From Methylococcaceae bacterium (GTDB lineage Bacteria; Pseudomonadota; Gammaproteobacteria; Methylococcales; Methylomonadaceae): a DNA stretch of 50,293 nucleotides. Below the pieces are notes generated by a model. It was not told where the DNA came from and ran no database searches. It saw only the letters and a list, made by a program, of their open reading frames with translations. Positions 4,442-50,293 of this stretch are shown one piece after another. The stretch is from positions 1 through 50,293 of the forward strand of contig JBASLW010000084.1 of the NCBI GenBank assembly GCA_049656545.1, given 5' to 3'. How positions within the stretch are numbered: the stretch's first letter is position 1; the number at the start of each line of letters is the position of its first letter. The position numbers were made by a program, and so were the translations under genes.

Positions 4442-4450
4442 GGATTACAA

Positions 4451-5380
4451 ATGCAAAAATTAAAATGTGCTGTGATTGGAACAGGCTATTTAGGTAAATT
4501 TCACGCACAAAAATACGCAAATTTACCAGAATGTGAATTAGTCGCCGTCGTTGATAGCAATGCGGAAACGGCTGAAAAAATTGCTAACGAACATGATACG
4601 AAAGCCTTGACCGATTACACGTCACTTTTGGGCAAAGTTGATGCTGTGAGTATTGTTGTCCCGACGACTTTACATTATCAAGTTGCAAAAGATTTTTTAA
4701 ACGCGGGCGCACACGTTTTAATTGAAAAACCAATTACGACAACTGTTGAACAAGCTGATGAGTTAATTGCGATTGCAAAAGAAAAAAATTTAATTCTGCA
4801 AGTTGGACATTTAGAACGTTTTAATCCTGCGGTTTTAGCATTGGATAAAGACGAAAAACCGTTGTTTATTGAATCGCACCGTTTGTCACCATTTAACCCA
4901 CGCGCGAATGATGTTAGCGTGGTTTTAGATTTAATGATTCACGACATTGATATTATTTTGGCGTTGGTGAATTCGGAAGTGGTGAAAATCGACGCGAGCG
5001 GCACGGCGGTTTTAACGAAAGGAACAGACATTGCGAATGCACGTTTGACGTTTGCGAATGGTTGCGTAGCGAATGTGACAGCAAGTCGAATCAGCATGAA
5101 ACTTGAACGTAAAATGCGTTTATTTCGCCCTAGTTCTTATGCGTCAGTCGATTTTCAGAATCGAATTTTGCAAAAATATCGCACGGGTGACAAAGAAATG
5201 TTCCCAGGTGTGCCAGAAATTTTGAGCGAAGAAGCGACATTTGAAACGAGTGATGCGTTATTGGCTGAAATTGAGCAATTTGTCAGTTGTATTAAATCGG
5301 GTGAACAACCTTTAGTGACAGGCGAAGCAGCGCGTTTAGCATTGGCAACGGCAATAGAAATTACAAAACTACTAAATTAG
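4451..5380 (+). CDS. Gfo/Idh/MocA family NAD-dependent sugar oxidoreductase
   Basis: N-terminal Rossmann motif VIGTGYLGKFHA and the EKP motif (LIEKPITTT). Paired with a downstream DegT-type aminotransferase. Confidence 0.8.
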   Translation: MQKLKCAVIGTGYLGKFHAQKYANLPECELVAVVDSNAETAEKIANEHDTKALTDYTSLLGKVDAVSIVVPTTLHYQVAKDFLNAGAHVLIEKPITTTVEQADELIAIAKEKNLILQVGHLERFNPAVLALDKDEKPLFIESHRLSPFNPRANDVSVVLDLMIHDIDIILALVNSEVVKIDASGTAVLTKGTDIANARLTFANGCVANVTASRISMKLERKMRLFRPSSYASVDFQNRILQKYRTGDKEMFPGVPEILSEEATFETSDALLAEIEQFVSCIKSGEQPLVTGEAARLALATAIEITKLLN

Positions 5381-24829: not shown

Positions 24830-26446
24830 ATGACAGAAAAGGCTGAATTTAGTTACGAACATTATTTGGAAATGAAGCACATCGTCAGCCAGTTTGAAAA
24901 ATTGACCGACATCGGCATTTCTTTATCGTCTGAACATAACACCACGGAATTATTAGAAAAAATTTTAGTTGGTGCGATTTCATTAACGAATTCGGATGGT
25001 GGCACGATTTATATGGTACATGATGATAAAACCATTAAAAGCGCGATTATTCATTCGACCAGTTTAAACATCCATCTAAAAGGCAGTAATGAAGCGATTA
25101 TTTCGGTGTCGTTATACAACGAAAATGGTGAACCGAATTTAAAAAACGTTGTCAGTTATTCATACCACAAAGATATAACGCTAAACATTCAAGATGCTTA
25201 TGACAGTGAAGCATTTGATTTTAGTGGCACAAAATTATTTGATGCAAAAAACCATTACCGTTCAACGTCTTTTCTTACCGTTCCTTTAAAAAATCACGAA
25301 TTTGAAACCGTTGGAATGCTGCAATTGATTAACGCGCTAGATGCTAAAACGGGTAATGTGATTCCTTTTGATTCTATCGCACAACGTTTTTGCGAATCAC
25401 TTGCCAGCGAAGCCGCCACCGCGTTGACAAAACAACAATTGATTATCAATTTAGAACAAATGTTTGAATCAATGATTATGTTGATTGCGAACGCGCTAGA
25501 TGAAAAATCACCTTATAACGGTGGACATTGTCGACGTGTTCCTGAATTAACCATGATGATTGCTGAAGCCGCTCATAATACAAATGACGGTTATTTAAAA
25601 GATTTTTCATTGAGTGATGCTGACCGTTATGAATTGAAAATTGCAGGACTGTTACACGATTGCGGCAAAATTACTACGCCTGAATATGTCGTCGATAAAG
25701 CAACAAAACTGGAAACAATTTTTGATCGAATTTATTTATTAGAAACCCGTTTTGAAGTGTTAAAACGTGATGCTGAAATTGCGATGTTAAAACAAAAAGT
25801 CGCCGCGTTAGAAGTAGGACAAGATCCCCAAAATGAACTTTTAGATTATTTGTTTAACGAACGGATTACCTTGATTAACCAGCATTTCGCCTTTCTCAAA
25901 GAATGTAATAAAGGTAGCGAATTTACGTCACCTGAAAAACTACAAGCTCTGCAAGATTTACAGCAAATTACATGGCAACTTAACGGCGAATCTGTTCCGT
26001 TATTAAGTGGAAATGAATTGCATAATTTGAGTATTCCTTATGGCACATTGACAGAAATTGAACGTAAAAAAATCAACAATCACATTAGCGTCACTATTTC
26101 AATGTTGAATGCGATTAAGTGGCCTAAACATCTGAAAAATGTCACCAAATATGCAGGTGGGCATCATGAACGAATGGATGGCGGCGGTTATCCAAATGGA
26201 TTAACACGCGAAGAAATGCCAATTCAAGCACGAGCGATGGCGATTGCAGACGTTTTTGAAGCCTTAACCGCTTCAGATCGTCCTTATAAACCAGGTAAAA
26301 AATTGTCTGAATCGTTGTTTATTTTAGAAAAAATGAGCAAAACAGGACACATTGACCCCGATATTTATGCAGCCTTTATTTCACACAAAATTTATAAAAA
26401 ATACGCCGAAAAATTTCTAAAAGCTGAACAAATTGATGTTGATTAA
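24830..26446 (+). CDS. GAF-domain HD-GYP c-di-GMP phosphodiesterase
   Basis: 538 aa. N-terminal GAF-like region, then HD (LLHDCGKITTP) and HHERMDGGGYPNGL (the GYP motif), with a long insert between the two halves. Confidence 0.85.
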   Translation: MTEKAEFSYEHYLEMKHIVSQFEKLTDIGISLSSEHNTTELLEKILVGAISLTNSDGGTIYMVHDDKTIKSAIIHSTSLNIHLKGSNEAIISVSLYNENGEPNLKNVVSYSYHKDITLNIQDAYDSEAFDFSGTKLFDAKNHYRSTSFLTVPLKNHEFETVGMLQLINALDAKTGNVIPFDSIAQRFCESLASEAATALTKQQLIINLEQMFESMIMLIANALDEKSPYNGGHCRRVPELTMMIAEAAHNTNDGYLKDFSLSDADRYELKIAGLLHDCGKITTPEYVVDKATKLETIFDRIYLLETRFEVLKRDAEIAMLKQKVAALEVGQDPQNELLDYLFNERITLINQHFAFLKECNKGSEFTSPEKLQALQDLQQITWQLNGESVPLLSGNELHNLSIPYGTLTEIERKKINNHISVTISMLNAIKWPKHLKNVTKYAGGHHERMDGGGYPNGLTREEMPIQARAMAIADVFEALTASDRPYKPGKKLSESLFILEKMSKTGHIDPDIYAAFISHKIYKKYAEKFLKAEQIDVD

Positions 26447-27470
26447 GTTGATGCCAATTTTTTTATTGGCATTTTTGATTGGCGTTAGTTTTTGGATGTT
26501 ACAACCTTTTGTATTAACGTTGTTGTGGGCATTTATTATTTCATTTGTTTTATTTCCACTTTACAAACGTCTTAATCAATTTATTCAAAACGATACGCTC
26601 AGTGCGTTTGTTTTCACCTCTTTTATCACGGTTGTTTTAGTTGGTTTAACCTTTGTGATATTTCATTTAATCGAAAATGAAATCAAAAACGCTTACATTT
26701 TGTTATCAAATAACGTCGTTGAATCCTCGTGGCAATTACCCGAAAAAATTAGACACATTCCGCATATTGGTGATTATTTACAAGATAATCTGAATCGGCT
26801 GAAAAATAATCATCTGTCATTGACAGCACAGTTAATGGATTGGTTAAAAAACAGTTTTGGCATATTCGCGCAATTTTTTAGCCATATTGGACAACGAGTA
26901 ATTAAATTCAGTTTTGTTTTAGTCACCGTCTTTTTTTGTTTTCGAGATGGCGAATTATGGTTACAACAACTTAAACAATTTTTGCATTATTTTTTAGGCG
27001 ATGCTTACAGTTTATATTTGCAAACCGCAAGTGATACGACTCGAGCCGTCATTTATGGTTTAGTTTTAGCCGCTTTATCACAAGGTTTTATTGCGGGAAT
27101 TGGCTATTTTGTCGCGGGTGTAAAAATGCCGTTATTGCTTGCAATGCTCACCGCGTTACTGGCGTTAATTCCGATGGGAGCGACATTGGTTTGGTTGCCG
27201 ACAGCGTTAATGTTACTTATCGACAACCAATTATTCGCAGGCATTGGTTTAATAATTTGGGGATTTTTGGCAATTAGTACCATTGACAACGTGATTCGTC
27301 CGTTAGTCATTTGCGGCGCAAGTAAAATTCCTTTTTTAGTCGTGATGTTCGGTGTATTTGGCGGTTTATCAACATTTGGCACAATTGGTTTGTTTTTAGG
27401 ACCTGTGATTCTTTCTGTTCTTTTAGCAGTTTGGAAAAATTTTATTCGTTCGCTAAATGAAACATCTTAG
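26433..27470 (+). CDS. AI-2E family transporter (PerM/YhhT, UPF0118)
   Basis: 345 aa, multi-pass membrane protein with the family C-terminal block ([31 protein letters not shown]). The start is uncertain (26433 or 26451). Confidence 0.85.
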
Positions 27471-29566
27471 TTCGTTTTAAAATTCGATACCGTAACAGAT
27501 AATTTCCGTGCTTGTTCTTCAAGCGATTCTGCCCCTGCAGCGGCTTCTTCCACTAAGGCTGCGTTTTGTTGCGTGACTTCATCCATCTGAGAAATCGCAT
27601 GATTCACTTGAGCAATCCCTGCGCTTTGTTCAACTGACGCGGCAGTAATTTCACCCATAATTGCCGTCACGCCTTGAACAGCTTGAACAATTTCTTGCAT
27701 TGTTTGACCTGCTTTTGCGACCAATTGACTGCCATCTTCAACTTTATCGACAGAATCACCAATCAACATTTTAATTTCACCCGCCGCCGCTGCCGCCCGT
27801 TGCGCTAAATTGCGAACTTCTGTCGCAACGACAGCAAAACCACGACCTTGTTCACCTGCACGCGCCGCTTCAACTGCCGCATTTAGTGCTAAGATATTGG
27901 TTTGAAAGGCAATGTTATCAATTACTGAAATAATTTCGACCACTTTGCGCGAGGATTCATTGATGCTATCCATGGTTGTCACCACATTTCCCACCACAAT
28001 GCCGCCTTGACTTGCAATTCTTGCGGCTTCACGCGCTAATTGATTGGCTTGTGTGGCATTATCAGCATTGTGTTGAACGGTTCCTGTTAATTCGGTCATG
28101 CTCGCGGCTGTTTCTTCTAAACTTGTCGCTTGTTTTTCAGTTCGTTGCGACAAATCATTATTTCCCGCTGCAATTTCTTGTGCAGCAGTGTTAATTTGCA
28201 AAGTAGAATCTTTAATTTCACCCACTAAGGCTTGTAAATTTTCGACAGTGCAATTGATTCCTTCGACAACTTTACCAAACGTGCCAGGGTAATTTTGGGT
28301 AATTTTTTGCGTTAAATTACCTTGAGCAAGCGACGTTGAAACACGCAAAATATCATTGAACCCCGTGTCGCACGTTGTGAGTAATTTATTTAAATCACTC
28401 AGCATATCGCGGAACATAAATTCAAAATCATCGGCATTGGCACGTTTTGAAAAATCACCCTCTAAGCCCGCTTTCGCTAAAATTTCAATTTCATTACTAA
28501 TTAAAAACAAGGCTTTTTTAATACCGCTCATTGCTTCCGTAATTATTCGTGTTTCACCTGGTAATTCTTCCATATCAAGCGAAAAATCGCCTTTTGCATA
28601 TTGAGCAACGATTTCAATAATTCTACGATTTATGCTAACGCGCGATTGAATTAAATCGTTCATTTGTTGAGCAATACGTTGATAAGTCCCTGAAAATTTA
28701 GAGACATCTACCATCACTTTTGGATAGCCCTTTTTATGTTGCTCTGCCATCATATCTTGTGCTTCAACAAAAGAATTCAACGCATTTTGCATCATGTTCA
28801 TTGAACGTAATAAATCGCCAATTTCATCGATTTGTGAAATATCAATTTTTGAACTCAAATCTCCCATTGCGATTGCATTGGCAATTTGTTGAGAAGATTT
28901 TAACGAACGCAAAATGCCTCGACTAATCAACCAAGTAACAATCGATGCTAAAACGATACTAAAACTGAAAATAGCCAGTAATCCAATATCAAAACTACCA
29001 ATTAAATTTTTAGCGTGTTCTTCATCTTTTGCATTACGTTTCGTTGTTTTTGCAACGACTTCATCAATCGCAGCACGGTGTTTTTCATAACTGGCTTTTA
29101 TTTTTGCCAAACTCGTTTCAACAGCCGCAGAATTGCCTGCTTGAACACTGGGAATAAAATTTTGTTGTGCTTCGTTATAAAAATCTTCGGCAGCGTGATA
29201 AGAATTTTCTAATAACAATGTTTTCAATTCAGGTTCAAGCGATTCATTTTGCCAATAAGTGTGACGTGTATCGTATTCACCTTTTAACACTTGAAAACGA
29301 TTAGCTAATGCTGAAATCTCATCTGGATTTGTAACGTGTGTAAGTTGTAAAACCACCAAATAGGATTCAAGAATATATTCAGGTGGCGGCAAAATATCGG
29401 CAATTAAATCTTTGCCTTGGACAATACGTTGATAAATAGGACCATTTACGTTGAGCGTACTCATTGCTTTCAATGTGGCAATACCAAAAAGCGTAAAGCC
29501 AATAATTAAAATACTTAAAATAATGCCAAACCTGGCTTTAATCGTAAATGAAGAGAATTTGTTCAT
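27467..29566 (-). CDS. Transmembrane methyl-accepting chemotaxis protein with periplasmic helical sensor and several HAMP-like repeats
   Basis: Canonical signalling tip ([37 protein letters not shown]) and two TM segments. The ATG at 29566 (MNKFSSF, with AGGA 8 nt upstream) is preferred over the ORF-track start at 29596. No C-terminal pentapeptide. Confidence 0.9.
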
Positions 29567-29618
29567 AATTTTTGTCCTAAAATTTTTACCGCGCATTTGT
29601 CACAAACTATATCTTGTA

Positions 29619-31878: not shown

Positions 31879-32946
31879 ATGACGGAAGAACACCTTACTC
31901 TGCACACAACGGACATACTCATCGTCGATGACACTTTGCCAAATTTACAATTGTTGACTTCAATTCTTAGAGAAGAAGGTTATAAAGTCCGCCCTGCCAG
32001 TTCAGGCGCGTTGGCGTTACAAGCCATTGCCAAAAAATTACCCGATTTAATTTTACTCGACATCAAAATGCCTGGTTTTGATGGTTATGAAGTGTGCGAA
32101 ACCTTAAAAAATAATCCTGAAACCAAAGATATTCCCATTATTTTTATCAGCGCGTTAAGTGATATTAGCGACAAAATAAAAGCCTTTAACGTTGGTGGTG
32201 TGGATTACATTAACAAACCGTTTCAATTTGAAGAAGTCAGAGCGCGTGTAGCAACCCATTTAAAACTGCAAGCCTATCAACGAGAAATGGCAAGTCGTGT
32301 CGCCGAAGCGGTTGAAGAAATCCACGTTTTAAATCAAGAAATTATTGATACGCAACGCGAATTGATTTTTACAATGGGTGAAATTTGCGAAACCCGTTCA
32401 CAAGAAACAGGTTTGCACGTTAAGCGTGTGGCGGAGTATTCCTACTTACTAGCAAAATTATCGGGCGTTGATGAAAGTATTGCGTCAATGATTAGACAAG
32501 CCTCACCGATGCACGATATTGGAAAGGTAGCGATTTCAGACGAAATTTTGCATAAAAATGGAAAATTAACACCAGAAGAATGGGAAATTATGAAAACACA
32601 TTCGACGTTAGGGCATTCTATGTTGTCAGTTTCAAATCGACCATTGCTACAAATGGCGGCAACTATCGCGCTAGAACATCATGAACGATGGGATGGGAAA
32701 GGGTATCCAAATGGGGCGAAAGGTGAAAATATCAGTCTAGCTGGTCGAATTACAGCCATTGCAGATGTGTTTGATGCCTTGGGTTCAATGCGTTGTTACA
32801 AAAATGCGTGGGAATTACCCGAAATTTTGACTTTTTTCAAAGAAGGACGAGGTAAACATTTTGATCCCAGATTATTAGATTTATTTTTTGACCATTTGAA
32901 CGAATTTTTAATCATTCGAGATGAATTTAAATGTAAAGAATGCTGA
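31879..32946 (+). CDS. Response regulator with HD-GYP output (RpfG family c-di-GMP phosphodiesterase)
   Basis: 355 aa. REC domain (ILIVDD, LLDIKMPGFDG) plus HD-GYP (MHDIGKVAI, HHERWDGKGYPNG). Confidence 0.9.
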   Translation: MTEEHLTLHTTDILIVDDTLPNLQLLTSILREEGYKVRPASSGALALQAIAKKLPDLILLDIKMPGFDGYEVCETLKNNPETKDIPIIFISALSDISDKIKAFNVGGVDYINKPFQFEEVRARVATHLKLQAYQREMASRVAEAVEEIHVLNQEIIDTQRELIFTMGEICETRSQETGLHVKRVAEYSYLLAKLSGVDESIASMIRQASPMHDIGKVAISDEILHKNGKLTPEEWEIMKTHSTLGHSMLSVSNRPLLQMAATIALEHHERWDGKGYPNGAKGENISLAGRITAIADVFDALGSMRCYKNAWELPEILTFFKEGRGKHFDPRLLDLFFDHLNEFLIIRDEFKCKEC

Positions 32947-37124: not shown

Positions 37125-39041
37125 ATGAAAAAATCTGTTGGTTATTATTTCCCCCATTCACTTAAAGCACGTTTAATTATTCTGACGTTATTGTTTTTAC
37201 TTTTACCGACAGGAATTTTAGGTTATCTCGGTTACGATTATTTATATAACACCATTAAAAACAATAACATTCGCGCTGTTGGACACATTGCAGATTCACG
37301 TCATGAACAACTTAACGTGATGCTTCAAAATACAAATAATCGAGCAACCCATTTTCTTGAAAATCTTTCTTTGCAATGTGAATCGGGAAATAAGCGAAAA
37401 ATCAATGATTGTTTAAAACAGGCGTTACAACTTTTTCTGAATAATGAACAAGCGTTAAGTGCCATTTTTACGAATGCAAATGGCGAAAAAATTAAAGTTG
37501 GTGATACGTTTTTATCTGAAATTTTGCCTTTCAAATCAAAACAATTAGTTGGCTTTAGTGCGCCTGAAAAAAATACACCCCGTTTATATTACATCGTCAT
37601 CCAAAATGAAAAAGGTGAACATTTAATCGTCACGTTTCCCATTCTTGAAATTCAAAAAATTTTTATCAGCGACCCCAGTTTAGGCGAATCGGGCGACGTT
37701 TTTATTATGGATTCGGAAGGTTTTTTTATTACGCAACCGCATTTACTTGATACCGATAGTCCGCAAGAAGCCAAAAATGACCACGCAATGCACCATTGTT
37801 TAATGATGGGTAACGCTGAAATGCTTGATGTGGATAGGCGAAATGTCGAAATTATTCACAGTTTTCGATTTGTCCCTGAAGTTGGTGGCGGTTGCATCAT
37901 GGCACATTTAGATCAAGCAGAAGCCTTTTCGGCGTTAGATATTCTGCAATGGCGTGTCATTTGGATTACGTTAGGGTTGATTATTTTTGCTTTGATTCTC
38001 GCGCTAATTGTTGGACGAAATATCGTCAAACCAATAGAAAAACTTTGCGCGGTGACACATCAAATTATTAACGGCAACTACACAATTTCAGCCGTTGTTG
38101 CTGGAGATGACGAAATTGCTGAATTAGCAAATGCGTTTAATTTAATGACAGAACGTTTGAAATGCGCGTTTGATGAATTAAATGCCCATCGCGCTCAACT
38201 TGAACATAAAGTTCAAAAACGCACCGCTGAATTATCAATTGCAAAGGATGAAGCAGAGCAATCGTTAATGTTATTGCAACAAACCAAAGAAAATTTAGTT
38301 CAAGCCGAAAAAATGGCAGCATTAGGTGGTTTGGTTGCGGGAATTTCGCACGAAATCAATACACCGATTGGCATTACAGTTACGTCCGCTTCATTTTTAA
38401 ATGTAGAAACGAACAAAGTCATTGAACTTTATCAAGAGGGAGAATTGGGCGGTGACGAATTAGAATTCTATTTTGAAACCGCCAAACAATCCACAGAATT
38501 GATGATGATAAATTGCCAACGTGCAGCAGATTTGATTCACAGTTTTAAACAAATTTCTGTTGATCAAACTAGCGATAATTTGCGTGAATTTAATTTGAAA
38601 AATTATCTGGAAGAAATTTTATTAAGTTTGCGTCCTGCGCTTAAAAAAACACGGATTAACGTTGAATTAAATTGTTTACCAAGTTTATTTGTTTTTGGTT
38701 ATCCAGGTGCGATTTCGCAAATTGTGACCAATTTTGTCATGAATTCTTTGTTTCATGCCTACGAACCGAATCAAATCGGCACGATTAAATTAAATGTTAC
38801 GCTGTTTTCAGCACACAAAATTGAGTTGTGTTATAGCGATGACGGAAAAGGAATTCGACACGATATTCAAAATAAAATTTTTGACCCTTTTTTCACGACA
38901 CAACGCGGTAATGGCGGCAGCGGTTTAGGGCTTCATGTTGTGTATAACCTTGTGCATCAAGTGTTAAAAGGCTCACTGCAAATCGACAGCATTGAAGGTA
39001 AAGGTACTACTTTTATTGTTAATTTTCCAAAACGAATGTAA
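37125..39041 (+). CDS. Sensor histidine kinase (periplasmic Cache-like domain, HAMP, DHp, HATPase)
   Basis: 638 aa, two TM segments, HAMP (DEIAELANAFNLM), H-box GISHEINTPIG, and N/G boxes (NSLFHA, GSGLGLH). Confidence 0.85.
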   Translation: MKKSVGYYFPHSLKARLIILTLLFLLLPTGILGYLGYDYLYNTIKNNNIRAVGHIADSRHEQLNVMLQNTNNRATHFLENLSLQCESGNKRKINDCLKQALQLFLNNEQALSAIFTNANGEKIKVGDTFLSEILPFKSKQLVGFSAPEKNTPRLYYIVIQNEKGEHLIVTFPILEIQKIFISDPSLGESGDVFIMDSEGFFITQPHLLDTDSPQEAKNDHAMHHCLMMGNAEMLDVDRRNVEIIHSFRFVPEVGGGCIMAHLDQAEAFSALDILQWRVIWITLGLIIFALILALIVGRNIVKPIEKLCAVTHQIINGNYTISAVVAGDDEIAELANAFNLMTERLKCAFDELNAHRAQLEHKVQKRTAELSIAKDEAEQSLMLLQQTKENLVQAEKMAALGGLVAGISHEINTPIGITVTSASFLNVETNKVIELYQEGELGGDELEFYFETAKQSTELMMINCQRAADLIHSFKQISVDQTSDNLREFNLKNYLEEILLSLRPALKKTRINVELNCLPSLFVFGYPGAISQIVTNFVMNSLFHAYEPNQIGTIKLNVTLFSAHKIELCYSDDGKGIRHDIQNKIFDPFFTTQRGNGGSGLGLHVVYNLVHQVLKGSLQIDSIEGKGTTFIVNFPKRM

Positions 39042-39056
39042 AAAAATCTCAACACA

Positions 39057-40535
39057 ATGACTGAAAAAAAACCGCTTAACTTAAAAACTCAAAATACATT
39101 TTCATCTAAATTAACCACAACGTCTCATGCTATACCGTGGCGAATTTTAGTTGTCGATGATGAAGAAGATGTTCATTCCGTGACGCGCTTAATTTTGACA
39201 AAAATTGCGTTTAAAAATCGTCCTGTTGAATTATTGTGTGCTTATTCTGCGTTTGAAGCGCGTGACATTTTGGCGCGTGAAAAAAATATCGCGGTGATTT
39301 TGCTTGATGTCGTGATGGAAACCGATGATGCGGGATTGCGACTGGTTAAAATTATTCGTGATGATTTACATAATCATGAAGTTCGGATTATTTTGCGAAC
39401 AGGACAACCAGGACAAGCTCCCGAAGAGCGCGTGATTGTTGATTACGATATTAACGATTACAAAGCGAAAAACGAATTAACCTCGCAAAAATTATTTACC
39501 GCTGTGATTTCTGCATTACGCGCTTATGAAACCATTATGTCGCTCAATAAAACACGACGCGGGTTAGAGAAAATTCTGCACAGTTCAGATTCTCTTTTTA
39601 AAATTCAATCGATGCACGAATTTGCATCGGGAATTTTGGCGCAATTAAGTTTATTTTTGGATTGTCAACCGCAAGGCATTATTTGTATTGAACAAAATAG
39701 AGATGGCGATGTTGAACCGATTTCCTGTTTGCCAAACAACATGAAAATTATTGCGGTAACAGAAGAATTTGAATGTTGTTTGCGTTGTCATTTAGACCAT
39801 TCGTGTGGACATGACGAAATTGCCAACATGATTAAAACCGCGTTATACGAACGAAAAAATCAATTTAGTGAGCAATACTCCGCCTTTTATTTAGACACTA
39901 ATGACGATAAAGCGACCATTGCGTTGGTGTATAGCGAAAAAGAAATTGAAAAACACGATTTGGATTTACTTGAAGTTTTCACGTCAAAAATTTCGATTGC
40001 GTTAGCTAACGCGATTCATTATCAAAAAATGGTTACCTTTGAAAAAGCGGCTGTGACCGATTTTTTAACGAATTTGAATAATCGTCGTCAGTTGTTACGT
40101 TTAGGTTTGCCGATGTTAGCATTGGCAAATCGCAATAATCGATTAGCAGTCGCCATGATTGACATCGATTTGTTTAAACAAGTGAATGATTTATATGGTC
40201 ATGATGTTGGCGATATTGTGTTGAAACACATTAGCAAAATGATGGGTGAGCGTTTTCGTAGTTGTGATGTGGTGGCGCGTTATGGTGGTGAAGAATTTTG
40301 CATTCTTGCGCCGTCATTGAATTCACCACAATTAGCCTTTGAATTATTTGATAATTTTCGAATATCGTTAGCAAATTCAGACATTCAAATTTCAGAAACA
40401 CAAACGTTGAAAATTACAGTCAGTATCGGTGTAACAACCGATTTATGTCCCAATTTAGACGATATGATTACAGCCGCTGATTATTTGTTGTACAAAGCGA
40501 AAAATAAAGGGCGAAATTGCGTAATGGTAAAATAA
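39057..40535 (+). CDS. Response regulator REC-(DUF3369-like linker)-GGDEF diguanylate cyclase
   Basis: 492 aa. REC ([36 protein letters not shown]), then a GGDEF domain with an RYGGEEF active site and an RSCD I-site. Confidence 0.9.
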
Positions 40536-42657: not shown

Positions 42658-43386
42658 CTAAACACCTGTACCAACTTGTAACGAATCAAACCAATCTAAG
42701 AAGCGTTTTACATCGTCACCTTTAAACATCCGTCCATGTTGAGGAGCTAAAATATCAATATCTAAATTTCTAACACGGTCAATCCAAGCACGTTTTGCTT
42801 GATTTGATGGCATCATACGTTGATGGTAATAACGCATTTTTTCAACGTGAACATCAAAACGTTCTACGAAAACAGGCGCACCTGCATTTTCAAATGCAGA
42901 ACCGACACTGCCACACATCAAAATTTTCGCAACAGGATCATAAACATGAAAACCACAAGGCGAATGTAAATAATGAGCAGGAATCAATTGCAATTCAACC
43001 GCTTCAATTTTAATCGTTTCGCCATTATCTGGAATTGGCACATATTCAATTGATTCACAACCGAAATGTCTAATGTAACCTTCCCACAACGCAGGCGCGT
43101 GTAATCTCGCATTTGATAAGGCTTGATCCCACAAACCTAACGATGAAATCACGTCAGGGTCTTGATGCGAAGCAAATAAATCGGTGATTTGTTCAACAGG
43201 TGCATGATGCAAAACAGCTGCCATCATCGGCGCAAATAACTCTGTACCACCTGGCTCAAGTAATAAACATTTATTCGCTGTGCGAACAATATATTGATTA
43301 CTATCAATAATGTTATCGGGTTTATTTTCGTCGCGCCCAAACATCACCCATTGATGCGCTCCTTCGTAAATTTTAGTCATTTTCAT
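42658..43386 (-). CDS. ODP-like protein: stand-alone flavodiiron-type metallo-beta-lactamase-fold domain
   Basis: 242 aa, collinear with the N-terminal MBL domain of flavodiiron proteins (QYIV....LLLEPGG, ASHQDPDV at the HxExDH position, IPAHYLHSP, LMCGSVGSAF, RYYHQRMMP, APQHGRMF). No flavodoxin domain. Strong RBS (AGAGGAG). Last gene of the che operon. Confidence 0.6.
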   Translation of the reverse strand: MKMTKIYEGAHQWVMFGRDENKPDNIIDSNQYIVRTANKCLLLEPGGTELFAPMMAAVLHHAPVEQITDLFASHQDPDVISSLGLWDQALSNARLHAPALWEGYIRHFGCESIEYVPIPDNGETIKIEAVELQLIPAHYLHSPCGFHVYDPVAKILMCGSVGSAFENAGAPVFVERFDVHVEKMRYYHQRMMPSNQAKRAWIDRVRNLDIDILAPQHGRMFKGDDVKRFLDWFDSLQVGTGV

Positions 43387-43404
43387 GAAAATGCTGCTCC
43401 TCTT

Positions 43405-44019
43405 TTAACTATTGCGATAAATGGATAATGCGATTCGGCAACGTTGCACATTATCATGAATGGTATGTGCGGCTTTATCGACACTTTCGGCGACCGCTTG
43501 CAAACTTTGCAAATACTCACCTGCTTGCGATGCTTCAATGCGAGAGTTTGCCGCAATAACACGGGCAGCTCTGGCATGGTGCATCACCGCTTCGAGTTGC
43601 CCCAACAATTGTGTAACATCACGTTTAAATTGACGTTGACAATCTTGCATAATGGTTCGTGCATGTGTAATCGGTTCTTGCATTGAATCCGCATAACGTG
43701 CGCCAACGGCTAATTTTCCAACTTGTTCAAAGCGGTTGTAAGCGGCGGTACGTCTGTATTCATTCACGGTTAAACGGTACAAAAGTAACGCATAAACGTT
43801 GATATTGGTGACTAATTCAATGGTTTCTTTTGCTAATTCGTTAATAAAATCGGTAATCGGTTGAAAGCCTTTCGCTTTATCACCTGCGCGAAACGCAATG
43901 GCTTTTGCATTTGCAGCGGCTAACGAAATTTCTTTTGCCACGACCATAACGGCACTCAACTCCGACGTAATCGAAGCGACCGCGATAAATTGTGATTTTG
44001 TCTGACTGTTCATAATCAT
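43405..44019 (-). CDS. Small soluble MCP-signalling-domain-like protein with two hairpin-tip-like motifs
   Basis: 204 aa with no TM segment. Residues 30-66 (EISLAAANAKAIAFRAGDKAKGFQPITDFINELAKET) and 153-184 (RVIAANSRIEASQAGEYLQSLQAVAESVDKAA) both align to the MCP tip consensus [31 protein letters not shown]. Confidence 0.6.
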   Translation of the reverse strand: MIMNSQTKSQFIAVASITSELSAVMVVAKEISLAAANAKAIAFRAGDKAKGFQPITDFINELAKETIELVTNINVYALLLYRLTVNEYRRTAAYNRFEQVGKLAVGARYADSMQEPITHARTIMQDCQRQFKRDVTQLLGQLEAVMHHARAARVIAANSRIEASQAGEYLQSLQAVAESVDKAAHTIHDNVQRCRIALSIYRNS

Positions 44020-44075
44020 AAGGTCTCTATTCGCCTGAAAAATAATAGCGTTGATATTGAAAAAAACGAGCCGTT

Positions 44076-45149
44076 TTAGCGCAATCCTGTTTTAACTAAT
44101 GCCAAAACTTTCTCGGCAATATCATCTAATGGCACAACATAATCCGCGCAACCCAATTTAAAGGCAGCACCAGGCATTCCCCAAACAACACTCGACGCTT
44201 CATCTTGTACAATAGTTTTTGCACCCGATTCTTTCATTGCTTGCATCCCAATTGCGCCATCTGCTCCCATTCCTGTTAGCAAAACGCATACCGCATTTGA
44301 ACCTGTACATTTTGCAGCGGAATGAAACAACACATCAACAGAAGGTTTATGTCGATTAACAGGCGCACCGTCTTGTAATTGAATAATGTACTGGTTGTTG
44401 TTTCGTATCACTTCCATGTGTTGATCGCCAGGTGCAAGATAGATATTGCCCCATTCAACAACCTGTCCATGAGTCGGAATACTGGCAGTCATATCGGTCG
44501 CTGCGTCAATATGTTTAACAAATGAATCACTAAATGCCGCTGGTAAATGTTGTGTAATCAAAATGGGCGGACAATCTGCTGGCAGTGTTTTAACAACCAC
44601 TTTAATCGCTTCTGTACCACCTGTGGACGAACCGAGTACGATAATTTTATTAAATCCTGTCGCATTTCGTGCCGCAATCATGCGTTTAATTGCCAACGTT
44701 TCTTGCGAATGCTGCGCGGCTTCGCCATGACCTTGAAGCGTTTTTAAATTTGTGCGTGACGCAATGCGAACTTTTGAAATAATTTCAGCCGTGTAATCAG
44801 CTAATCCTGTTTCAGTGTTACCTTTGGGTTTTGCTAAAAAATCCACTGCCCCAATCGCCAACGCTTCAAGTGTTGCTTCTGCACCGCGTTCTGTTAGCGT
44901 CGAAATCATGACAACAGGCGTTGGACGCAAGCGCATTAAATTTCGTAAAAACGTAATGCCATCCATTTGCGGCATTTCAATATCGAGTGTTAATACATCA
45001 GGATTGAGTTGTTTAATCATTTCCCGAGCAATTAGCGGATTTTCAGCCGCACCAACCACTTCAATATCGTCAGCGGTTTCTAATATACTCGTTAAAATTT
45101 TGCGGACTAACAATGAATCATCAATAATCAATACACGGATTTTATTCAT
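44076..45149 (-). CDS. cheB: Chemotaxis response regulator protein-glutamate methylesterase CheB
   Basis: 357 aa. REC (VLIIDDS, LTLDIEMPQMDG) plus an esterase domain (GSSTGGTEA, the HMEV region, LTGMGADG). Confidence 0.95.
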   Translation of the reverse strand: MNKIRVLIIDDSLLVRKILTSILETADDIEVVGAAENPLIAREMIKQLNPDVLTLDIEMPQMDGITFLRNLMRLRPTPVVMISTLTERGAEATLEALAIGAVDFLAKPKGNTETGLADYTAEIISKVRIASRTNLKTLQGHGEAAQHSQETLAIKRMIAARNATGFNKIIVLGSSTGGTEAIKVVVKTLPADCPPILITQHLPAAFSDSFVKHIDAATDMTASIPTHGQVVEWGNIYLAPGDQHMEVIRNNNQYIIQLQDGAPVNRHKPSVDVLFHSAAKCTGSNAVCVLLTGMGADGAIGMQAMKESGAKTIVQDEASSVVWGMPGAAFKLGCADYVVPLDDIAEKVLALVKTGLR

Positions 45150-45161
45150 GTTTGGCTCGAC

Positions 45162-45797
45162 TTAAAATAACTCAACATCGCCTTCAACAGGCAACTCTTT
45201 AATGTTTCTGGAGTATTGACGTTCCCGTTGAGCAATAGTGTCATTGTGTAAATCTTGAATTTTTTTCATACCGACTTTGCCCGTTTTAGGAAAATAAATC
45301 ACTTTTCGTGGATAAATATCTCCTAAATCTTTGGACAATAACGCTAACCCTTCTTGGTCGATGTAATCCAAAACAAAACTGATATTTCGTTCTCCCACAT
45401 CGCTTAACGTCGGAATAATTTTTCCACCACCAAACACTTTGACTTCTAAATTTTTACGTTTTCCACCATTTGACAAAATGGTGTTAATTAAATGTTCCAT
45501 CGCGTAATTGCCGTAACGTGTAGCATTACCAATCATCGCGTCACTACCTTGGCGCATTTTTTCCGCGTACGTTTCAGGCAACATAAAATGATTCATACCA
45601 CCAATACCTGTTTCTTTATCTCGAATACAGGCTGCAATACACGAACCTAACACGGTGGTAATTAACTCATTTTGAGTTGTAACGTAGTATTCGCCTGGCA
45701 AAATCTTGGCGGCAATAACGCCATGATCTTGATCTAAATAACGATTCACATGGTCAAAACCTTGAACCGAGGGTCTGTCAATTTGATTGCGATCCAT
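45162..45797 (-). CDS. cheD: Chemoreceptor glutamine deamidase CheD
   Basis: 211 aa with TVLGSCIAACIRD, GIGGMNHFMLPE and VKVFGGG. Confidence 0.9.
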   Translation of the reverse strand: MDRNQIDRPSVQGFDHVNRYLDQDHGVIAAKILPGEYYVTTQNELITTVLGSCIAACIRDKETGIGGMNHFMLPETYAEKMRQGSDAMIGNATRYGNYAMEHLINTILSNGGKRKNLEVKVFGGGKIIPTLSDVGERNISFVLDYIDQEGLALLSKDLGDIYPRKVIYFPKTGKVGMKKIQDLHNDTIAQRERQYSRNIKELPVEGDVELF

Positions 45798-45803
45798 TTT
45801 ATT

Positions 45804-46640
45804 TTATATATTTTTTCTATAACTGGTGGTTGCCACTAATTCAAACTCGCTTGAAAGCTGATTCAAGGACTCTGAATGTCCAATAAATAACCAAGATTTA
45901 CTCACCAACAGTTTAGCATAACGTTTTGCAAGCGCAGCTTTAGTTTCGCGGTCAAAATAGATCAATACATTACGACAAAAAATTACATCAAATGGCGTAG
46001 TCATTGACCATTCCTGCATCAAATTAAGTTGCCGAAACTGAATGATTTCTTGCAATTGCGGTTTAACTTTAACGTATTCAGGTGATGATTTACTTTTCAT
46101 AAACCAACGTTTTAAAACAGACGTTGGTAATTCAGCAATTCTGTCTTGAGCATAAATGCCTTCTGAAGCCGTTTGTAAAACTTGCGTATCTAAATCGGTC
46201 GCTAAAATTTTAACATCCCAATCTGACGGGACATTTTCAAGCATCGTCATTGCGATAGAATAAGGTTCTTCACCTGTTGAACAACCCGCAGACCAAATCC
46301 GAATTTGTTTTGTTGCCGCATTACGTTTTAACAATTCAGGAATGACAACTTCACGCAAATAATCAAAATGGTGCATTTCACGGAAAAATGACGTGAGATT
46401 TGTCGTAATTGCGTTAATAAAATCGGTAAATTCCTCTTCATGATTGCTTTGCAAATAATCGCAATACTCTGAAAAGTCGTTTAACCCCAAACGGCGTACT
46501 CGTTTTGAAAGACGTGAATAAAACATATCAAAACGTTCGTCTGGTACTTGAATTCCTGAATGGGAATTCGACAATTTTCTTAAAACGTTAAAGTCTTCGA
46601 CGGTAAATTTAAATTCACGCTCTTTTTCTACAATAGCCAT
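45804..46640 (-). CDS. cheR: Chemotaxis protein methyltransferase CheR
   Basis: 278 aa with TNLTSFFRE, IRIWSAGCSTGEEPYSIAM and IFCRNVLIYFD. Confidence 0.93.
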   Translation of the reverse strand: MAIVEKEREFKFTVEDFNVLRKLSNSHSGIQVPDERFDMFYSRLSKRVRRLGLNDFSEYCDYLQSNHEEEFTDFINAITTNLTSFFREMHHFDYLREVVIPELLKRNAATKQIRIWSAGCSTGEEPYSIAMTMLENVPSDWDVKILATDLDTQVLQTASEGIYAQDRIAELPTSVLKRWFMKSKSSPEYVKVKPQLQEIIQFRQLNLMQEWSMTTPFDVIFCRNVLIYFDRETKAALAKRYAKLLVSKSWLFIGHSESLNQLSSEFELVATTSYRKNI

Positions 46641-46668
46641 TTACGCCCGCCCCTAACTTGCGACACCA

Positions 46669-47388
46669 CTACTCAGATATTTCAAGCACTGATAATAAAT
46701 CCAATAATTTAGCGGATTCAATAAATCGCGCTGATGGATAAATAATGTTGATAGTTTTGCCTAAATTTGGTGCATCTTTTTTTAGAGAAACTAACATTTG
46801 AAATGTGGCGGTATCAATGGTTGTGACATCTGAAGCGTTAATTTCAATTGTATCGTGAGCTGCCAACGTTTTTTTGAATGTTTCATGAAGTTCAGCAATC
46901 GTTTTCAAACTGGCTTCACTTCCTAATTCCACTAACGGTTCAATGAATGCGTCAATGATTTCTTCTTCAATAACAGTTTCTTCAGGCATCGCGTCACTCT
47001 CAGTCTGGGCTTCTTCGGTTTGTTCGCTAATTTCCTCAACAAGAGCATCTAAAACTGCGTTTTCCGTTTGCGATTCAGTGTTTTCGGATGCAACATCAAT
47101 TTGAATTGCTACGTTTTCGTTTGCTTCAATCGTAATTTCAATTTCGCCGTTTTCATCAATGCTTACGTCAATTTCAACTTCTTCATCAACAATTTCGTCT
47201 GTTTTTTCCAACACAACGGGCAATTCTTCAGGTGTTTCTGCTACGTTTTCAGTTTCTTCAATAACAGGCGCGGTTTTCGATTTCGCTTTTGCTCGCACCT
47301 TTTTTACTGGCGCAACAGGAACGTCGTCAATCGTTTCGCCATCCATCCATGCTAAAGGATCGTAACCAATTAAATTATTTGTTGTCAT
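46669..47388 (-). CDS. Highly acidic protein with N-terminal basic peptide and C-terminal STAS (anti-sigma-antagonist-like) domain
   Basis: 239 aa. N-terminus LIGYDPLAWM then VKKVRAKAKSK, a Glu/Asp-rich linker of about 120 aa, and a C-terminal region of about 90 aa with a STAS-like pattern (LKTIAELHETFKK...IEINASDVTTIDTATFQMLVSL). The start overlaps the parA-like stop by 14 nt. Confidence 0.55.
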   Translation of the reverse strand: MTTNNLIGYDPLAWMDGETIDDVPVAPVKKVRAKAKSKTAPVIEETENVAETPEELPVVLEKTDEIVDEEVEIDVSIDENGEIEITIEANENVAIQIDVASENTESQTENAVLDALVEEISEQTEEAQTESDAMPEETVIEEEIIDAFIEPLVELGSEASLKTIAELHETFKKTLAAHDTIEINASDVTTIDTATFQMLVSLKKDAPNLGKTINIIYPSARFIESAKLLDLLSVLEISE

Positions 47389-48148
47389 TGTTCATTACTC
47401 TATTTTCAAGAAAATCATTGGCAAGGTTGCGGAAATCTCGTGCAGAACGGCTTTTAGGACTGTATTCCAAAATCGTTTGCCCAAAACTAGGACATTCGGC
47501 AAGCAAGGCAGTTTCACGAATGACGGTCGCTAAAACCTGATTCGGGAAATGTGACAATAAAATGTTTAATACCTGATCTGAAATTCGGCGTGTCGAAATA
47601 AACCGAGAAATCACCACGGACAATTTATATTGTCTTTTCAACGCCCCTTCAAAGCGTTTCACTGTCGCCATTAAATGCGATAAACCTTGCAACGATAAGA
47701 AATCACTCGCCATTGGTACTAAAATTTCATGCGTGGCAATTAACGCATTTGCGACAAGTAAGCCAGACGATGGTGGACAATCAATAAAGATAAAATCTTG
47801 ATCGACAAGTTGTCCTTTTAACGCATCACGCAACAAAACGCCTCTCGGTGTTCCGTTATTACTCATTTGTTCAACATCTTTGAGCTTTGAACCTGCGGGA
47901 ATCAATTGCAAATTCTCACGCACTTTTATTGTGACATCTTCAACCGTTTTTTCTTTAAGCATTGCTAAGTCAATGCCCTGAAGATCGTGAGAAATAACAC
48001 CAAATGAAACGGCTAAATGTCCTTGCGGGTCAAAATCAATCACCGTTACTTTTTTGCCTAATTCCGCTAATGCGTGACACAAATTCGCCGTCGTCGTCGT
48101 TTTACCTACGCCGCCTTTTTGATTGATAATGGCAATTAAACGTGTCAT
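47375..48148 (-). CDS. ParA/MinD-family ATPase embedded in the che operon (ParC/PpfA-like)
   Basis: 257 aa with the deviant Walker A (INQKGGVGKTTT), IIDCPPS-type Walker B (FIFIDCPPS) and a ParA-like C-terminus. Confidence 0.85.
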   Translation of the reverse strand: MTRLIAIINQKGGVGKTTTTANLCHALAELGKKVTVIDFDPQGHLAVSFGVISHDLQGIDLAMLKEKTVEDVTIKVRENLQLIPAGSKLKDVEQMSNNGTPRGVLLRDALKGQLVDQDFIFIDCPPSSGLLVANALIATHEILVPMASDFLSLQGLSHLMATVKRFEGALKRQYKLSVVISRFISTRRISDQVLNILLSHFPNQVLATVIRETALLAECPSFGQTILEYSPKSRSARDFRNLANDFLENRVMNNDNK

Positions 48149-48150
48149 GT

Positions 48151-48681
48151 CTACAAGTCTTCAGCTTCAGCAAAATCTGAAATAGCTTCCATGTCATCAA
48201 CTTCATCTGGATTGAGAAGTTTATCGACATCAAGCAACATAATCATATTTTGTTTATAAACGTGCATTCCTCGCATATAACGAGTGTCAAGTTGCGAACC
48301 AAAATTTGGGGCTTTTTTGATTTCATTCGTTTTAATATCAAGTACATCCGATACCGCATCTGCCACAATTCCCATGACAAATGTATCAGTACGATGATGT
48401 TTAATACATAAAACAATAACAACCGTTTTGTGTGTATATTCGCAATGTTCAAGTGAAAAACGTTCGCGCAAATCGACAATTGGAATCACAGAGCCACGCA
48501 AATTCAAAACGCCTTTGATAAAAGAAGGGGCATTAGGAATAACACGAACAGCTTCCCACCCTCTGATTTCTTGTACTTTTAAAATTTCCACGCCATAGAC
48601 TTCGTTAGCGAGTTCAAACGTTAAAAATTGTTCGATTTGTTTAGGATCTATTTGTTTATTTGAATCAGTTGTCATGGTCAT
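48151..48681 (-). CDS. cheW: Chemotaxis coupling protein CheW
   Basis: 176 aa with FLTFELANEVYGVEILKVQEI and GVLNLRGSVIPIVDLR. Confidence 0.93.
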   Translation of the reverse strand: MTMTTDSNKQIDPKQIEQFLTFELANEVYGVEILKVQEIRGWEAVRVIPNAPSFIKGVLNLRGSVIPIVDLRERFSLEHCEYTHKTVVIVLCIKHHRTDTFVMGIVADAVSDVLDIKTNEIKKAPNFGSQLDTRYMRGMHVYKQNMIMLLDVDKLLNPDEVDDMEAISDFAEAEDL

Positions 48682-48720
48682 TCCCAGCGGATTATTTTGA
48701 TTTAACAGTTACAGATTTTA

Positions 48721-50293
48721 TTAAAATTCTTCCCAATCATCACCAATACTGTTCACCGATGAAGTAACTGGTTTTGAAACGATGGATTTATTTGATTGTG
48801 ATGCGTTTGCCGCAGGTTTTGAAGCCATTACTTGATGTCGTGCTGAACCCGATTTTTTGCCAACACTAAAGAAATCAAGCAATTTTGTCATTCTCGCTGA
48901 TTGATCACTCATTGCCATACTACCTGCGGCGGCTTCTTCGGCTAATGCAGCATTTTGTTGGGTAATGTCGTCCATTTGTGCAATAGCTTGATTGACTTGA
49001 TTGATTCCCGCCGATTGTTCACTACTTGATAACGTAATATGTCCAACAATATCGCCCACTTTGGCAATACTATCGACAATTTCCATTAACGCTGCCCCTG
49101 TTTCATTTACAAATGCCGTGCCAGAACGCACTTTTTGAACACTATTTTGAATTAGCTCGCTACTTTGTGCGGCAGCATTCGCGCTACGTTGTGCTAAATT
49201 TCTGACTTCTGTTGCAACAACTGAAAAACCACGACCTTGTTCACCTGCTCTCGCGGCTTCAACGGACGCATTTAATGCTAACAAATTTGTTTGGAACGCA
49301 ATTTCATCAATCACACCAATAATTTCGGCAATTTTATTACTACTTTCATTGATTTCTTGCATCGCCATGATTGCTGAACGAACAACGTCACCACCTTTTT
49401 CAGCCAATTGTGTTGCTGATTGAACCACTTTTGTCGCTTGATTTGTATTTTCAGCATTACTTTTTACCGCACTCGACAATTCGTGCATACTCGCGGCGGT
49501 TTCTTCTAAACTTGCCGCTTGTTGTTCAACACGATGTGACAAATTGTTGTTACCACTTGCCATTTCTTGTGACGAATTATTGACAAATGCCGCCGCTTCA
49601 TGAATCTGAACAATCAACTCGCTAATTTTACTCATTGTGTTATTGATATTTTCTTTACATTCAGCGTAAGTACCTTGGTAATCGGCTTGTATAGAATCCG
49701 TTAAATCACCATTCGACATTTTTTCGACAACGCGATTGATTTCACTAAACGCATTCTCAATCACGTCTGTTAATTCATTGATGTTAATCGATAAGGCTTT
49801 AGCAAAACCCTCTTTGCCAACTAAATTGATTCTCGCATTAAGCTGACCCACTTTGATTGAATTCACCAAGTTTTGGATTTCATATTCAATTTGCGTTTCT
49901 TGAGTTCTATCAAGCCATTCTGCAACATACCCAATTCGCTCACCATTGTTTGTAATAACAGGTGTTGCAATCACTTGCATCACATGACCTGCCAACTTAA
50001 TTTCTATCGTTGCAGACGATTGCAAATTAAAAAGCAAATCTCGCTGATAAGTCGGATTTTTATGGAATATACTAAAATTTGTGCCTAACAATTGTGCGGC
50101 TTTAAAATTAGGTAATTCTTTTCTAATGTCATTTTCAGCGTTGATAAATAAATTTTTTGCCGCCTTATTGATATAAATAACTTCTAAATTTGAATTTGCA
50201 ATTAAAACGCTAGATTGAACGTTTTCTAAACCACTGATAATTCGTATCGAATCCGCTGTTGCTTGGCGCGAAGCACCTAAATCGCCACCTAAT
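48721..50293 (-). CDS. Aer2/McpB-like soluble chemoreceptor (PAS-heme, di-HAMP, MCP signalling domain, C-terminal DWEEF), 5' end outside window
   Basis: I translated the frame manually and it stays open to the window edge (...[49 protein letters not shown]...AEWLDRTQE). This matches the P. aeruginosa Aer2 PAS as I remember it, including the FHKNP His and a Trp exactly 49 residues later. Canonical tip [26 protein letters not shown]. Ends GDDWEEF. Confidence 0.85.

Follow-up and report, generated by a model that had tools for sequence, protein, structure and literature searches.

A ParA-type ATPase paired with a STAS-domain protein in the F7-type chemosensory operon of Methylococcales: a candidate array-positioning module

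In a stretch of 50,293 nt from a Methylococcaceae bacterium (assembly GCA_049656545.1, contig JBASLW010000084.1; this whole stretch of analysed DNA is called the window below) we found a gene for a ParA/MinD-family ATPase followed by an overlapping gene for an acidic protein with a C-terminal STAS domain, here called the adaptor. The pair is located between cheW2 upstream and cheR downstream in a chemosensory (che) operon of the F7 type (Aer2), and domain scores together with gene order put this placement far beyond chance. On balance we think that the two proteins form a positioning or tethering module for an F7-type (Aer2) array, built on the ParA/MinD plan with a new adaptor. A preliminary description of the window, made from the sequence alone, had reported a ParA-like gene and a gene for an acidic STAS protein at 46669-48148; the list of open reading frames (ORFs) has both on the minus strand at exactly these positions, and the Pfam matches as well as the overlap between the two genes confirm them. 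The features of the pair are as follows (aa, amino acids; pLDDT, predicted local distance difference test).

47375-48148, minus strand: ParA/MinD-family ATPase of 257 aa, Soj-like, catalytic motifs intact (AAA_31, CbiA)
47375-47388, minus strand: overlap of parA stop and adaptor start, 14 nt, indicating translational coupling (direct sequence reading)
46669-47388, minus strand: adaptor of 239 aa with N-terminal motif, basic patch, acidic disordered linker and STAS domain (Pfam, alignment, AlphaFold2)
47344-47373, minus strand: N-terminal short linear motif LIGYDPLAWM (aa 6-15), proposed ParA-binding element (alignment, co-occurrence with parA)
47275-47307, minus strand: Lys/Arg cluster VKKVRAKAKSK (aa 28-38), subclade-specific (composition, locus comparison)
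46939-47274, minus strand: acidic, mostly disordered linker (aa 39-150; composition, pLDDT)
46672-46938, minus strand: STAS domain (aa 151-239), proposed docking module for the array or a Che protein (STAS_2, AlphaFold2, Foldseek)

Conservation of the gene pair in Methylococcales

Scanning one genome per species, we obtained 128 relatives and retained the best 80. From these 79 distinct loci were retrieved, and all locus counts given in the following (presence of parA, overlap, motif and linker) cover loci from the best 80 of the 128 relatives. All named relatives among these 80 are Methylococcales. The gene order CheW-ParA-STAS-CheR-CheD-CheB recurs in about 66 species-level Methylococcales genomes and in two distant metagenomic relatives, and the more extended order CheY-(Hpt)-CheA-CheW1-Aer2-CheW2-ParA-STAS-CheR-CheD-CheB was found in Methylobacter, Methylovulum, Methylomonas, Methylomarinum, Methylomagnum and metagenome-assembled genomes. 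Loci of Methylotuvimicrobium and Methylomonas carry the same cluster with protein identities of 56-81%, and two distant representatives of 50%-identity clusters that were looked up (P0158 and P0259) both show the context CheW-ParA-STAS-CheR. Regarding the junction of the two genes, the overlap in the window reads ATGACAACAAATAA, with the ATG of the adaptor inside the 3' end of parA. It measures 14 nt in 57 of 67 loci and 1, 4, 11 or 17 nt in nine others, so that the two genes overlap at this junction in 66 of the 67; the sole exception, L054, is a frameshifted assembly. The survey of parA-STAS pairs beside che genes thus found the pairing conserved, in line with the earlier proposal of a translationally coupled ATPase-STAS pair inside a che operon. 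For the STAS protein we obtained 425 homologues at E<=1e-3 in a 90%-clustered database; those that have a name there carry no label other than 'STAS domain-containing', 'MlaB component' or 'anti-anti-sigma factor'. When 1.84 billion 50%-identity representatives were searched with a profile, 225 matches lay below 1e-10, and most of the top 150 carry the N-terminal motif.

The operon was assigned to F7 by its gene order and by its sequence similarity to those clusters of Methylococcales for which the supplement of PMC7184735 gives an F7 CheA. In that study (Ortega et al. 2020) the Methylococcales CheA proteins MEALZ_2870 and Metme_2152 were classed as F7, and Methylomicrobium alcaliphilum was placed in 'stage 1' of F7 evolution. 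Its main text mentions anti-sigma antagonists for stage-1 F7 clusters and contains neither 'ParA' nor 'STAS' as a whole word. From CheY to the last methyl-accepting chemotaxis protein (MCP) the supplement gives 10 locus tags in Methylomonas methanica and 9 in M. alcaliphilum; by locus-tag arithmetic we infer that the extra gene in the Methylomonas methanica cluster is parA.

The ATPase matched the Pfam families AAA_31 (4.6e-43) and CbiA (1.9e-22), both above the curated cut-offs, and its earlier description as ParA-like stands. The deviant Walker A motif NQKGGVGKTT (K11, K16) shows no variation across the 65 orthologues, and neither do the aspartates D38, D40 and D123 of Walker A' and B; with Walker A, A' and B all present, the protein belongs to the ParA/MinD deviant Walker-A family. 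Nearest to it in sequence are chromosomal ParA/Soj proteins, with which it has all catalytic motifs in common: the closest solved structure is 8RAY (6.1e-42), a ParA crystal structure cited in a study of ParA-ParB in M. xanthus (10.1101/2025.03.14.642875), followed by Thermus Soj (6.3e-37) and then Helicobacter Soj. The ATPase attained none of the NCBIfam equivalog cut-offs: the score for ParA_partition remained at 109.4 bits with a cut-off of 180, and that for the BcsQ equivalog (NCBIfam TIGR03371) at 125 bits with a cut-off of 157.85; no bcs genes are located nearby.

These data also bear on the simplest alternative, already raised in the preliminary description, that an ordinary partition Soj/ParA came to lie in the che operon by chance, next to an unrelated STAS gene. 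The sequence is indeed Soj-like, the closest solved structures being chromosomal ParA/Soj, but the element of chance is refuted by synteny, as about 66 divergent genomes keep both gene order and overlap. We found no ParB among the window ORFs of at least 150 aa, and the low ParA_partition score, the replacement of the Soj DNA-binding Arg/Lys positions and the joint loss of parA and adaptor motif (both described below) speak against it as well, so that we give this explanation next to no credence.

The N-terminal motif of the adaptor and its link to parA

As had been proposed, the STAS protein is tripartite and comprises an N-terminal peptide, a spacer and a domain of the cargo-binding type, which is the build expected of a ParA/MinD partner. 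Among 63 aligned homologues the stretch L6, I7, G8, Y9, D10, P11, L12 does not vary, and conservation reaches at least 90% at A13 and W14. From 174 distinct N-termini the consensus [LM][IV]G[YF]DPLAW[ML] was derived, usually followed directly by acidic residues. Since the motif starts one codon past the overlap with parA, dual coding is no explanation for its conservation.

The presence of the motif coincides with that of parA. Three states of the locus were distinguished. State A is the full operon with parA, and all 66 intact loci of this state carry the motif; it is absent from 11 of 11 parA-less loci and from two further ParA-less contexts. In state B, represented by the Methylotuvimicrobium loci L076 and L078, a short STAS protein of 113-117 aa without the motif stands between CheW2 and CheR, and only parA and the motif-plus-linker part are missing, while Aer2, CheW2 and CheR are kept. 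State C (9 loci) has the order CheY-CheA-CheW1-STAS-CheD-CheB without Aer2, CheW2, ParA and CheR, and its STAS proteins lack the motif and have a different N-terminus, often starting with MAARKKK. Because state B has lost parA and the motif but retains Aer2, CheW2 and CheR, the motif tracks ParA specifically. When CheA+CheD were used for a neighbour-joining tree, the loci of state B and those of state C came out as separate clades, each within the state-A loci, which means that parA and the motif disappeared jointly on at least two occasions. A decayed remnant of the motif, 'LIDYDHLAG', is still present in L068, which has no parA.

The preliminary description had regarded the Lys/Arg cluster VKKVRAKAKSK as the kind of element that stimulates ParA ATPases, and in this emphasis it has to be corrected. 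At least 5 K/R in 12 residues occur only in L001-L015 and L022, which is the window's own subclade; Methylobacter adaptors are acidic at this position, and some orthologues, L070 for example, have no K/R at all within the first 40 residues. Being confined to one subclade, the cluster was rejected as a conserved ParA-binding element. Judged by its distribution in the aligned sequences, it is the invariant motif LIGYDPLAWM, not the Lys/Arg cluster, that goes with ParA.

Behind the motif the composition of the adaptor changes sharply from 6 K/R in aa 21-42 to 39 D/E and a single K/R in aa 43-150, and the isoelectric point (pI) of the whole protein is 4.05. Of the acidic linker of about 120 aa described earlier, the acidity applies to all orthologues, but the length is not fixed and ranges from 24 to 170 aa. 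In an AlphaFold2 model of the adaptor, based on an alignment of 63 sequences and calculated for the protein alone, the pLDDT of the linker is mostly below 50, and the first 20 residues reach about 60 without secondary structure. Within the linker, EIDVSIDENGEIEITIE (aa 72-88, window 47125-47175) is predicted as a beta-hairpin with a pLDDT of about 80 and is kept only in the window's subclade.

Some ParA-less members of the family have N-termini of their own. The basic MAARKKK-type N-terminus is common among reduced-operon STAS proteins (L050, L055, L056, P0139, P0144, P0151, P0192, P0200), and several reduced-operon STAS proteins contain ENDMNLIADLPED, which resembles a decayed or precursor form of ENDLIGYDPLAWMD. 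Further ParA-less members (P0238, P0241, P0247, P0248 and P0251; locus L084, 8001-8588) share another N-terminal motif, approximately F.QKF.QAE.W, followed by acidic residues. In L084 the order is CheW-STAS-CheR without ParA, with transposases throughout the operon. The STAS module may be coupled to other partners via other N-terminal tags.

The STAS domain, the proposed mechanism and known systems

In the C-terminal part of the adaptor STAS_2 (PF13466) matched aa 153-231 with 6.8e-10 (39.4 bits, cut-off 29.2), and PF01740 (STAS) remained slightly under its cut-off (21.6 versus 22.6 bits). AlphaFold2 gave aa 150-239 a STAS fold with a pLDDT of 93-96, for which Foldseek returned RsbV, SpoIIAA, TM1442 and MlaB (target-normalised TM-score 0.65-0.76, root-mean-square deviation about 2 A). 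The adaptor therefore ends in a genuine STAS domain, and the domain assignment of the preliminary description is upheld by STAS_2. A profile of the full-length adaptor searched against the PDB returned Hsp70 noise only, originating from the acidic linker, and a domain-only profile was used instead. For the MlaB equivalog (NCBIfam NF033618) the adaptor scored 18.6 bits with a cut-off of 90; the public 'MlaB component' labels on its homologues are domain-level transfers.

In the alignment of the domain profile, D192-T193 falls on the D-S phosphosite region of TM1442 and on the D-T of MlaB. With the invariant T193 at the start of helix 2 the adaptor has the Ser/Thr of SpoIIAA/RsbV-type switches, a residue that is typical of non-phosphorylated STAS domains too and is accordingly of little diagnostic value. 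In a classical partner switch the STAS protein would be an anti-sigma-factor antagonist, phospho-cycled at Thr193, with a transcriptional or stress output and ParA as an accessory. The alignment of T193 with the phosphorylated serine position agrees with this, as do the fold, which is closest to RsbV, SpoIIAA and TM1442, and the stage-1 F7 clusters elsewhere, which possess anti-sigma antagonists as well as a serine phosphatase and have been linked to the stress response (PMC7184735). We nevertheless consider a classical partner switch improbable: the operon, the window ORFs of at least 150 aa and the upstream genes scanned in L006 yielded no kinase of the RsbW/SpoIIAB type, no PP2C phosphatase and no anti-sigma factor, the Thr is also present in MlaB, where it lies within a protein-binding surface, and the ParA-linked N-terminal motif is left unexplained. 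The partner-switch input suggested in the preliminary description thus finds no support in the gene context. In the distant relative L082 a gene of the sigma-70 family (4440-5192; regions 2, 3 and 4) lies directly 3' of cheB in the ParA-STAS operon, which could bear on a partner switch.

Regarding the partner of the domain, ParA-less proteins conserve the STAS core IEINAS.V..IDTATLQLL..LK...PS.RFIESA.LLGL to the same degree as ParA-plus proteins. Because this conservation is independent of ParA, the partner should be sought among the proteins that all three states have in common, namely CheY, CheA, CheW1, CheD and CheB, and by analogy with CheS it is probably a core Che protein. CheS of Sinorhizobium meliloti and Agrobacterium fabrum, to which we liken the adaptor by description, is likewise a STAS protein from a che operon, binds CheA and alters the handling of CheY (PMC12654446). 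It is a STAS-only protein without N-terminal extension and without an adjoining ParA, whereas the adaptor has both; the short ParA-less members L076 and L078 have the CheS-like build. It is therefore conceivable, though in our view rather unlikely, that the STAS protein is primarily a CheS-like modulator of CheA phosphotransfer to CheY or CheB, the availability of which is gated by the ATPase through its nucleotide state, with positioning being secondary. The persistence of STAS relatives in ParA-less operon variants implies a ParA-independent role, and the ATP-dependent partner switching of FlhG is an established precedent within ParA/MinD (PMC11407121). However, a terminal peptide followed by a long spacer and a globular domain is the signature of a cargo adaptor, and there is little reason for a purely regulatory complex to have a spacer that varies between 24 and 170 aa.

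We therefore return to the positioning or tethering module. In ParA/MinD systems an N-terminal peptide of the partner contacts the ATPase dimer, while the rest of the protein holds the cargo (PMC11407121, PMC10241942); the ParB peptide is a short helix that places four hydrophobic residues into a pocket at the ParA dimer's edge, and its arginine is no catalytic finger (10.1101/2025.03.14.642875). By the same plan the ATPase of the window, with its intact deviant Walker A, A' and B motifs, would form ATP-sandwich dimers, LIGYDPLAWM at the extreme N-terminus of the adaptor would bind the ATPase, and the acidic disordered linker would serve as a flexible spacer. The C-terminal STAS domain would dock on the core of the signalling complex, with CheA or CheW as the likeliest target if CheS is taken as a guide. 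The position of the array or its inheritance would thereby be coupled to the distribution of the ATPase in the cell, so that the pair would position, tether or partition the array.

The matrix on which such an ATPase could act is less evident. The motif PRNVR of Soj (PKSVK in H. pylori) is replaced by RETAL; of the Soj DNA-binding Arg/Lys positions one is E212 in 65 of 65 orthologues, and at the other, position 215, 64 of 65 have L, V or A. Taking the numbering from the construct boundaries, we infer that position 215 corresponds to R238 of M. xanthus ParA. The M. xanthus R238E variant and the equivalent R189 mutant of B. subtilis Soj are reportedly DNA-binding-deficient. R238E was among the variants used in the M. 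xanthus ParA-ParB study (10.1101/2025.03.14.642875). At the same time the family has invariant basic residues of its own, R182, R187, R188, R211, R234 and R237, where chromosomal ParA/Soj have no basic residue, and the pI of the ATPase is 8.8. The basic surface may thus have been re-drawn, with DNA, lipid or the acidic linker of the adaptor as candidate ligands. To judge from these residues, a nucleoid ratchet like that of PpfA is no more likely than a ParC-like non-nucleoid anchor; DNA binding may still occur through other family-specific basic residues.

Several points count against a positioning or tethering role. The reading is built on genomic and evolutionary facts, and all contacts between the proteins are deduced from them. 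The replacement of the Soj DNA-binding Arg/Lys makes the usual nucleoid matrix uncertain, and the ATPase was placed by comparison with solved chromosomal ParA/Soj proteins. Near the motif no basic position is conserved, and the classical stimulation of the ATPase by Lys/Arg may therefore not apply. Methylomicrobium alcaliphilum 20Z has membrane-associated F7 arrays (PMC7184735), and L076 and L078, which are sequenced relatives of 20Z, lack this ParA. If 20Z is also without ParA, as the numbering of its locus tags suggests, the module would be dispensable for array assembly as such.

A more elaborate form of positioning, which we mention as a speculative and quite unlikely possibility, would be gated by a signal: the STAS domain would act as a switch (by phosphorylation of T193, a ligand or a partner) that attaches or releases the Aer2-type array, so that partner-switching logic is fused with ParA positioning. 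The matrix of the ATPase might then be non-nucleoid, or the acidic linker might act as a DNA mimic on the basic surface and stand in for the Lys/Arg of classical partner peptides.

Among known systems the pair resembles ParC/ParP of Vibrio and Pseudomonas (F6), in which a ParA-like ATPase gene is also located inside a che operon. ParP, like the adaptor, is encoded by the next gene and has an N-terminal ATPase-binding region (proposed in the case of the adaptor), a long low-complexity linker and a C-terminal array domain; its ParC-binding N-terminus also works when fused to another array component (PMC5706961). ParP ends in a CheW-like AIF domain, whereas Pfam found STAS only and no CheW match in the C-terminus of the adaptor; the linker is proline-rich in ParP and acidic in the adaptor, and ParC/ParP belong to an F6-class cluster, whose CheA carries a LID domain, whereas the operon described here is of the F7/Aer2 type. 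PpfA of Rhodobacter sphaeroides is likewise a ParA-like ATPase from a che operon and, according to the passages devoted to it in PMC5706961 and PMC11407121, positions an array of soluble receptors via the N-terminus of its partner. This partner is the cytoplasmic chemoreceptor TlpT, while here it is the coupled downstream gene for the STAS protein that carries the motif. PpfA binds DNA non-specifically; in the ATPase of the window the basic positions of Soj PRNVR are Glu and Leu.

In ParB, too, the partner motif stands at the very N-terminus and has many hydrophobic residues. LIGYDPLAWM loosely parallels what we take to be the ParB pattern LG[RK]GLxALL, the common form presumably being [LI]-G-x4-A-[LW]-[LM]. 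In contrast to ParABS there is no ParB, helix-turn-helix or parS partner here, and the central Arg/Lys of the ParB motif is Tyr in the adaptor. McdB of the carboxysome is largely disordered. Together with McdA it forms a pair that is comparable to ours in that a ParA-like ATPase acts with a partner that has an N-terminal interaction region (PMC11407121); it differs in its cargo, in the lack of a STAS domain in McdB and in the binding of McdA to the nucleoid.

Other genes of the window and significance of the pair

The pair is part of a run of genes on the minus strand (42658-50293) with small gaps or overlaps between neighbours. The other members of this run are listed here.

48721-50293, minus strand: Aer2-like soluble chemoreceptor, 3' part with PAS-HAMP-MCP signalling regions (Pfam HAMP_2 and MCPsignal; frame open to the window edge)
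48151-48681, minus strand: CheW2, the second CheW of the operon, directly 5' of parA (Pfam CheW 5.3e-34; position kept in related loci)
45804-46640, minus strand: CheR methyltransferase (Pfam CheR 2.1e-66 and CheR_N)
45162-45797, minus strand: CheD (Pfam CheD 1.2e-27)
44076-45149, minus strand: CheB methylesterase with receiver domain (Pfam CheB_methylest 4.6e-60 and Response_reg)
43405-44019, minus strand: small soluble MCP-like protein of 204 aa, penultimate operon gene (MCPsignal 1.3e-4, a weak match below the cut-off)
42658-43386, minus strand: ODP-family di-iron protein with metallo-beta-lactamase fold, last operon gene (Pfam ODP 3.8e-63)

For the truncated receptor of the window, the alignment with the 772-aa PAS/PAS/HAMP/MCP protein of L006 covers residues 254-773 of the latter. 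In this locus the full order is flgK-flgL, CheY-Hpt-CheA-CheW1-Aer2-like receptor-CheW2-ParA-STAS-CheR-CheD-CheB-small MCP-ODP. The Hpt gene of L006 (3127-3513) encodes a stand-alone 128-aa Hpt-domain protein between cheY and cheA; it is present in some relatives, and no match to it was found in L027. The small MCP-like protein is 92-98% identical among close relatives, where the ODP gene is always next to it, and the two genes are adjacent in nearly all related loci. They look like an oxygen/iron sensor pair feeding the system of the operon. A pair of small receptor and ODP protein has a precedent in Treponema.

Elsewhere in the window (27467-29596, minus strand) we noticed a separate 709-aa chemoreceptor that has, besides an N-terminal region of some 220 aa, poly-HAMP of the McpB/Aer2 type (HAMP, HAMP_N3, McpB_HAMP_2, HAMP_2); it may be the membrane-anchored partner receptor of the same F7 system. 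Second-messenger genes are dense in the window (24830-26446, 31879-32946, 37125-40535 and 3425-4441) and encode GAF-HD(HD_5), receiver-HD(HD_5), histidine-kinase-like, receiver-GGDEF-like and further GGDEF proteins. As judged from the translations, the ORF at 37125-39041 is sensor histidine kinase-like and the adjoining ORF at 39057-40535 may be a receiver-GGDEF protein. The remainder of the window is ordinary chromosome with motA, grpE/dnaK, tolQ/tolA-like genes, ruvAB, recQ and cobD.

In the literature searched we found no paper that links a ParA-like ATPase, a STAS domain and chemoreceptors, and the array systems named in a review of ParA/MinD cargos are ParC/ParP and PpfA only (PMC11407121). 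The pair is best read as an array module of the ParA type in which both the adaptor domain and the sharply defined N-terminal tag are new. If this is true, it would represent a third adaptor architecture for array-positioning ParA systems, after the CheW-like ParP and the receptor TlpT. The compact and invariant 10-residue tag appears to assign cargo to one ParA paralogue, and specificity determinants of this kind are sought in the ParA/MinD field (PMC10241942). The labels 'MlaB component', 'anti-anti-sigma factor' and 'STAS domain-containing protein' now carried by its homologues would be corrected. F7 (Aer2-type) arrays contain receptors without membrane anchors, and for those of Vibrio cholerae the basis of membrane association has been called unclear and polar localisation is independent of the other clusters (review PMC7534058). 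For the placing of ancestral F7 arrays in methanotrophs the pair is a concrete, genetically testable candidate.

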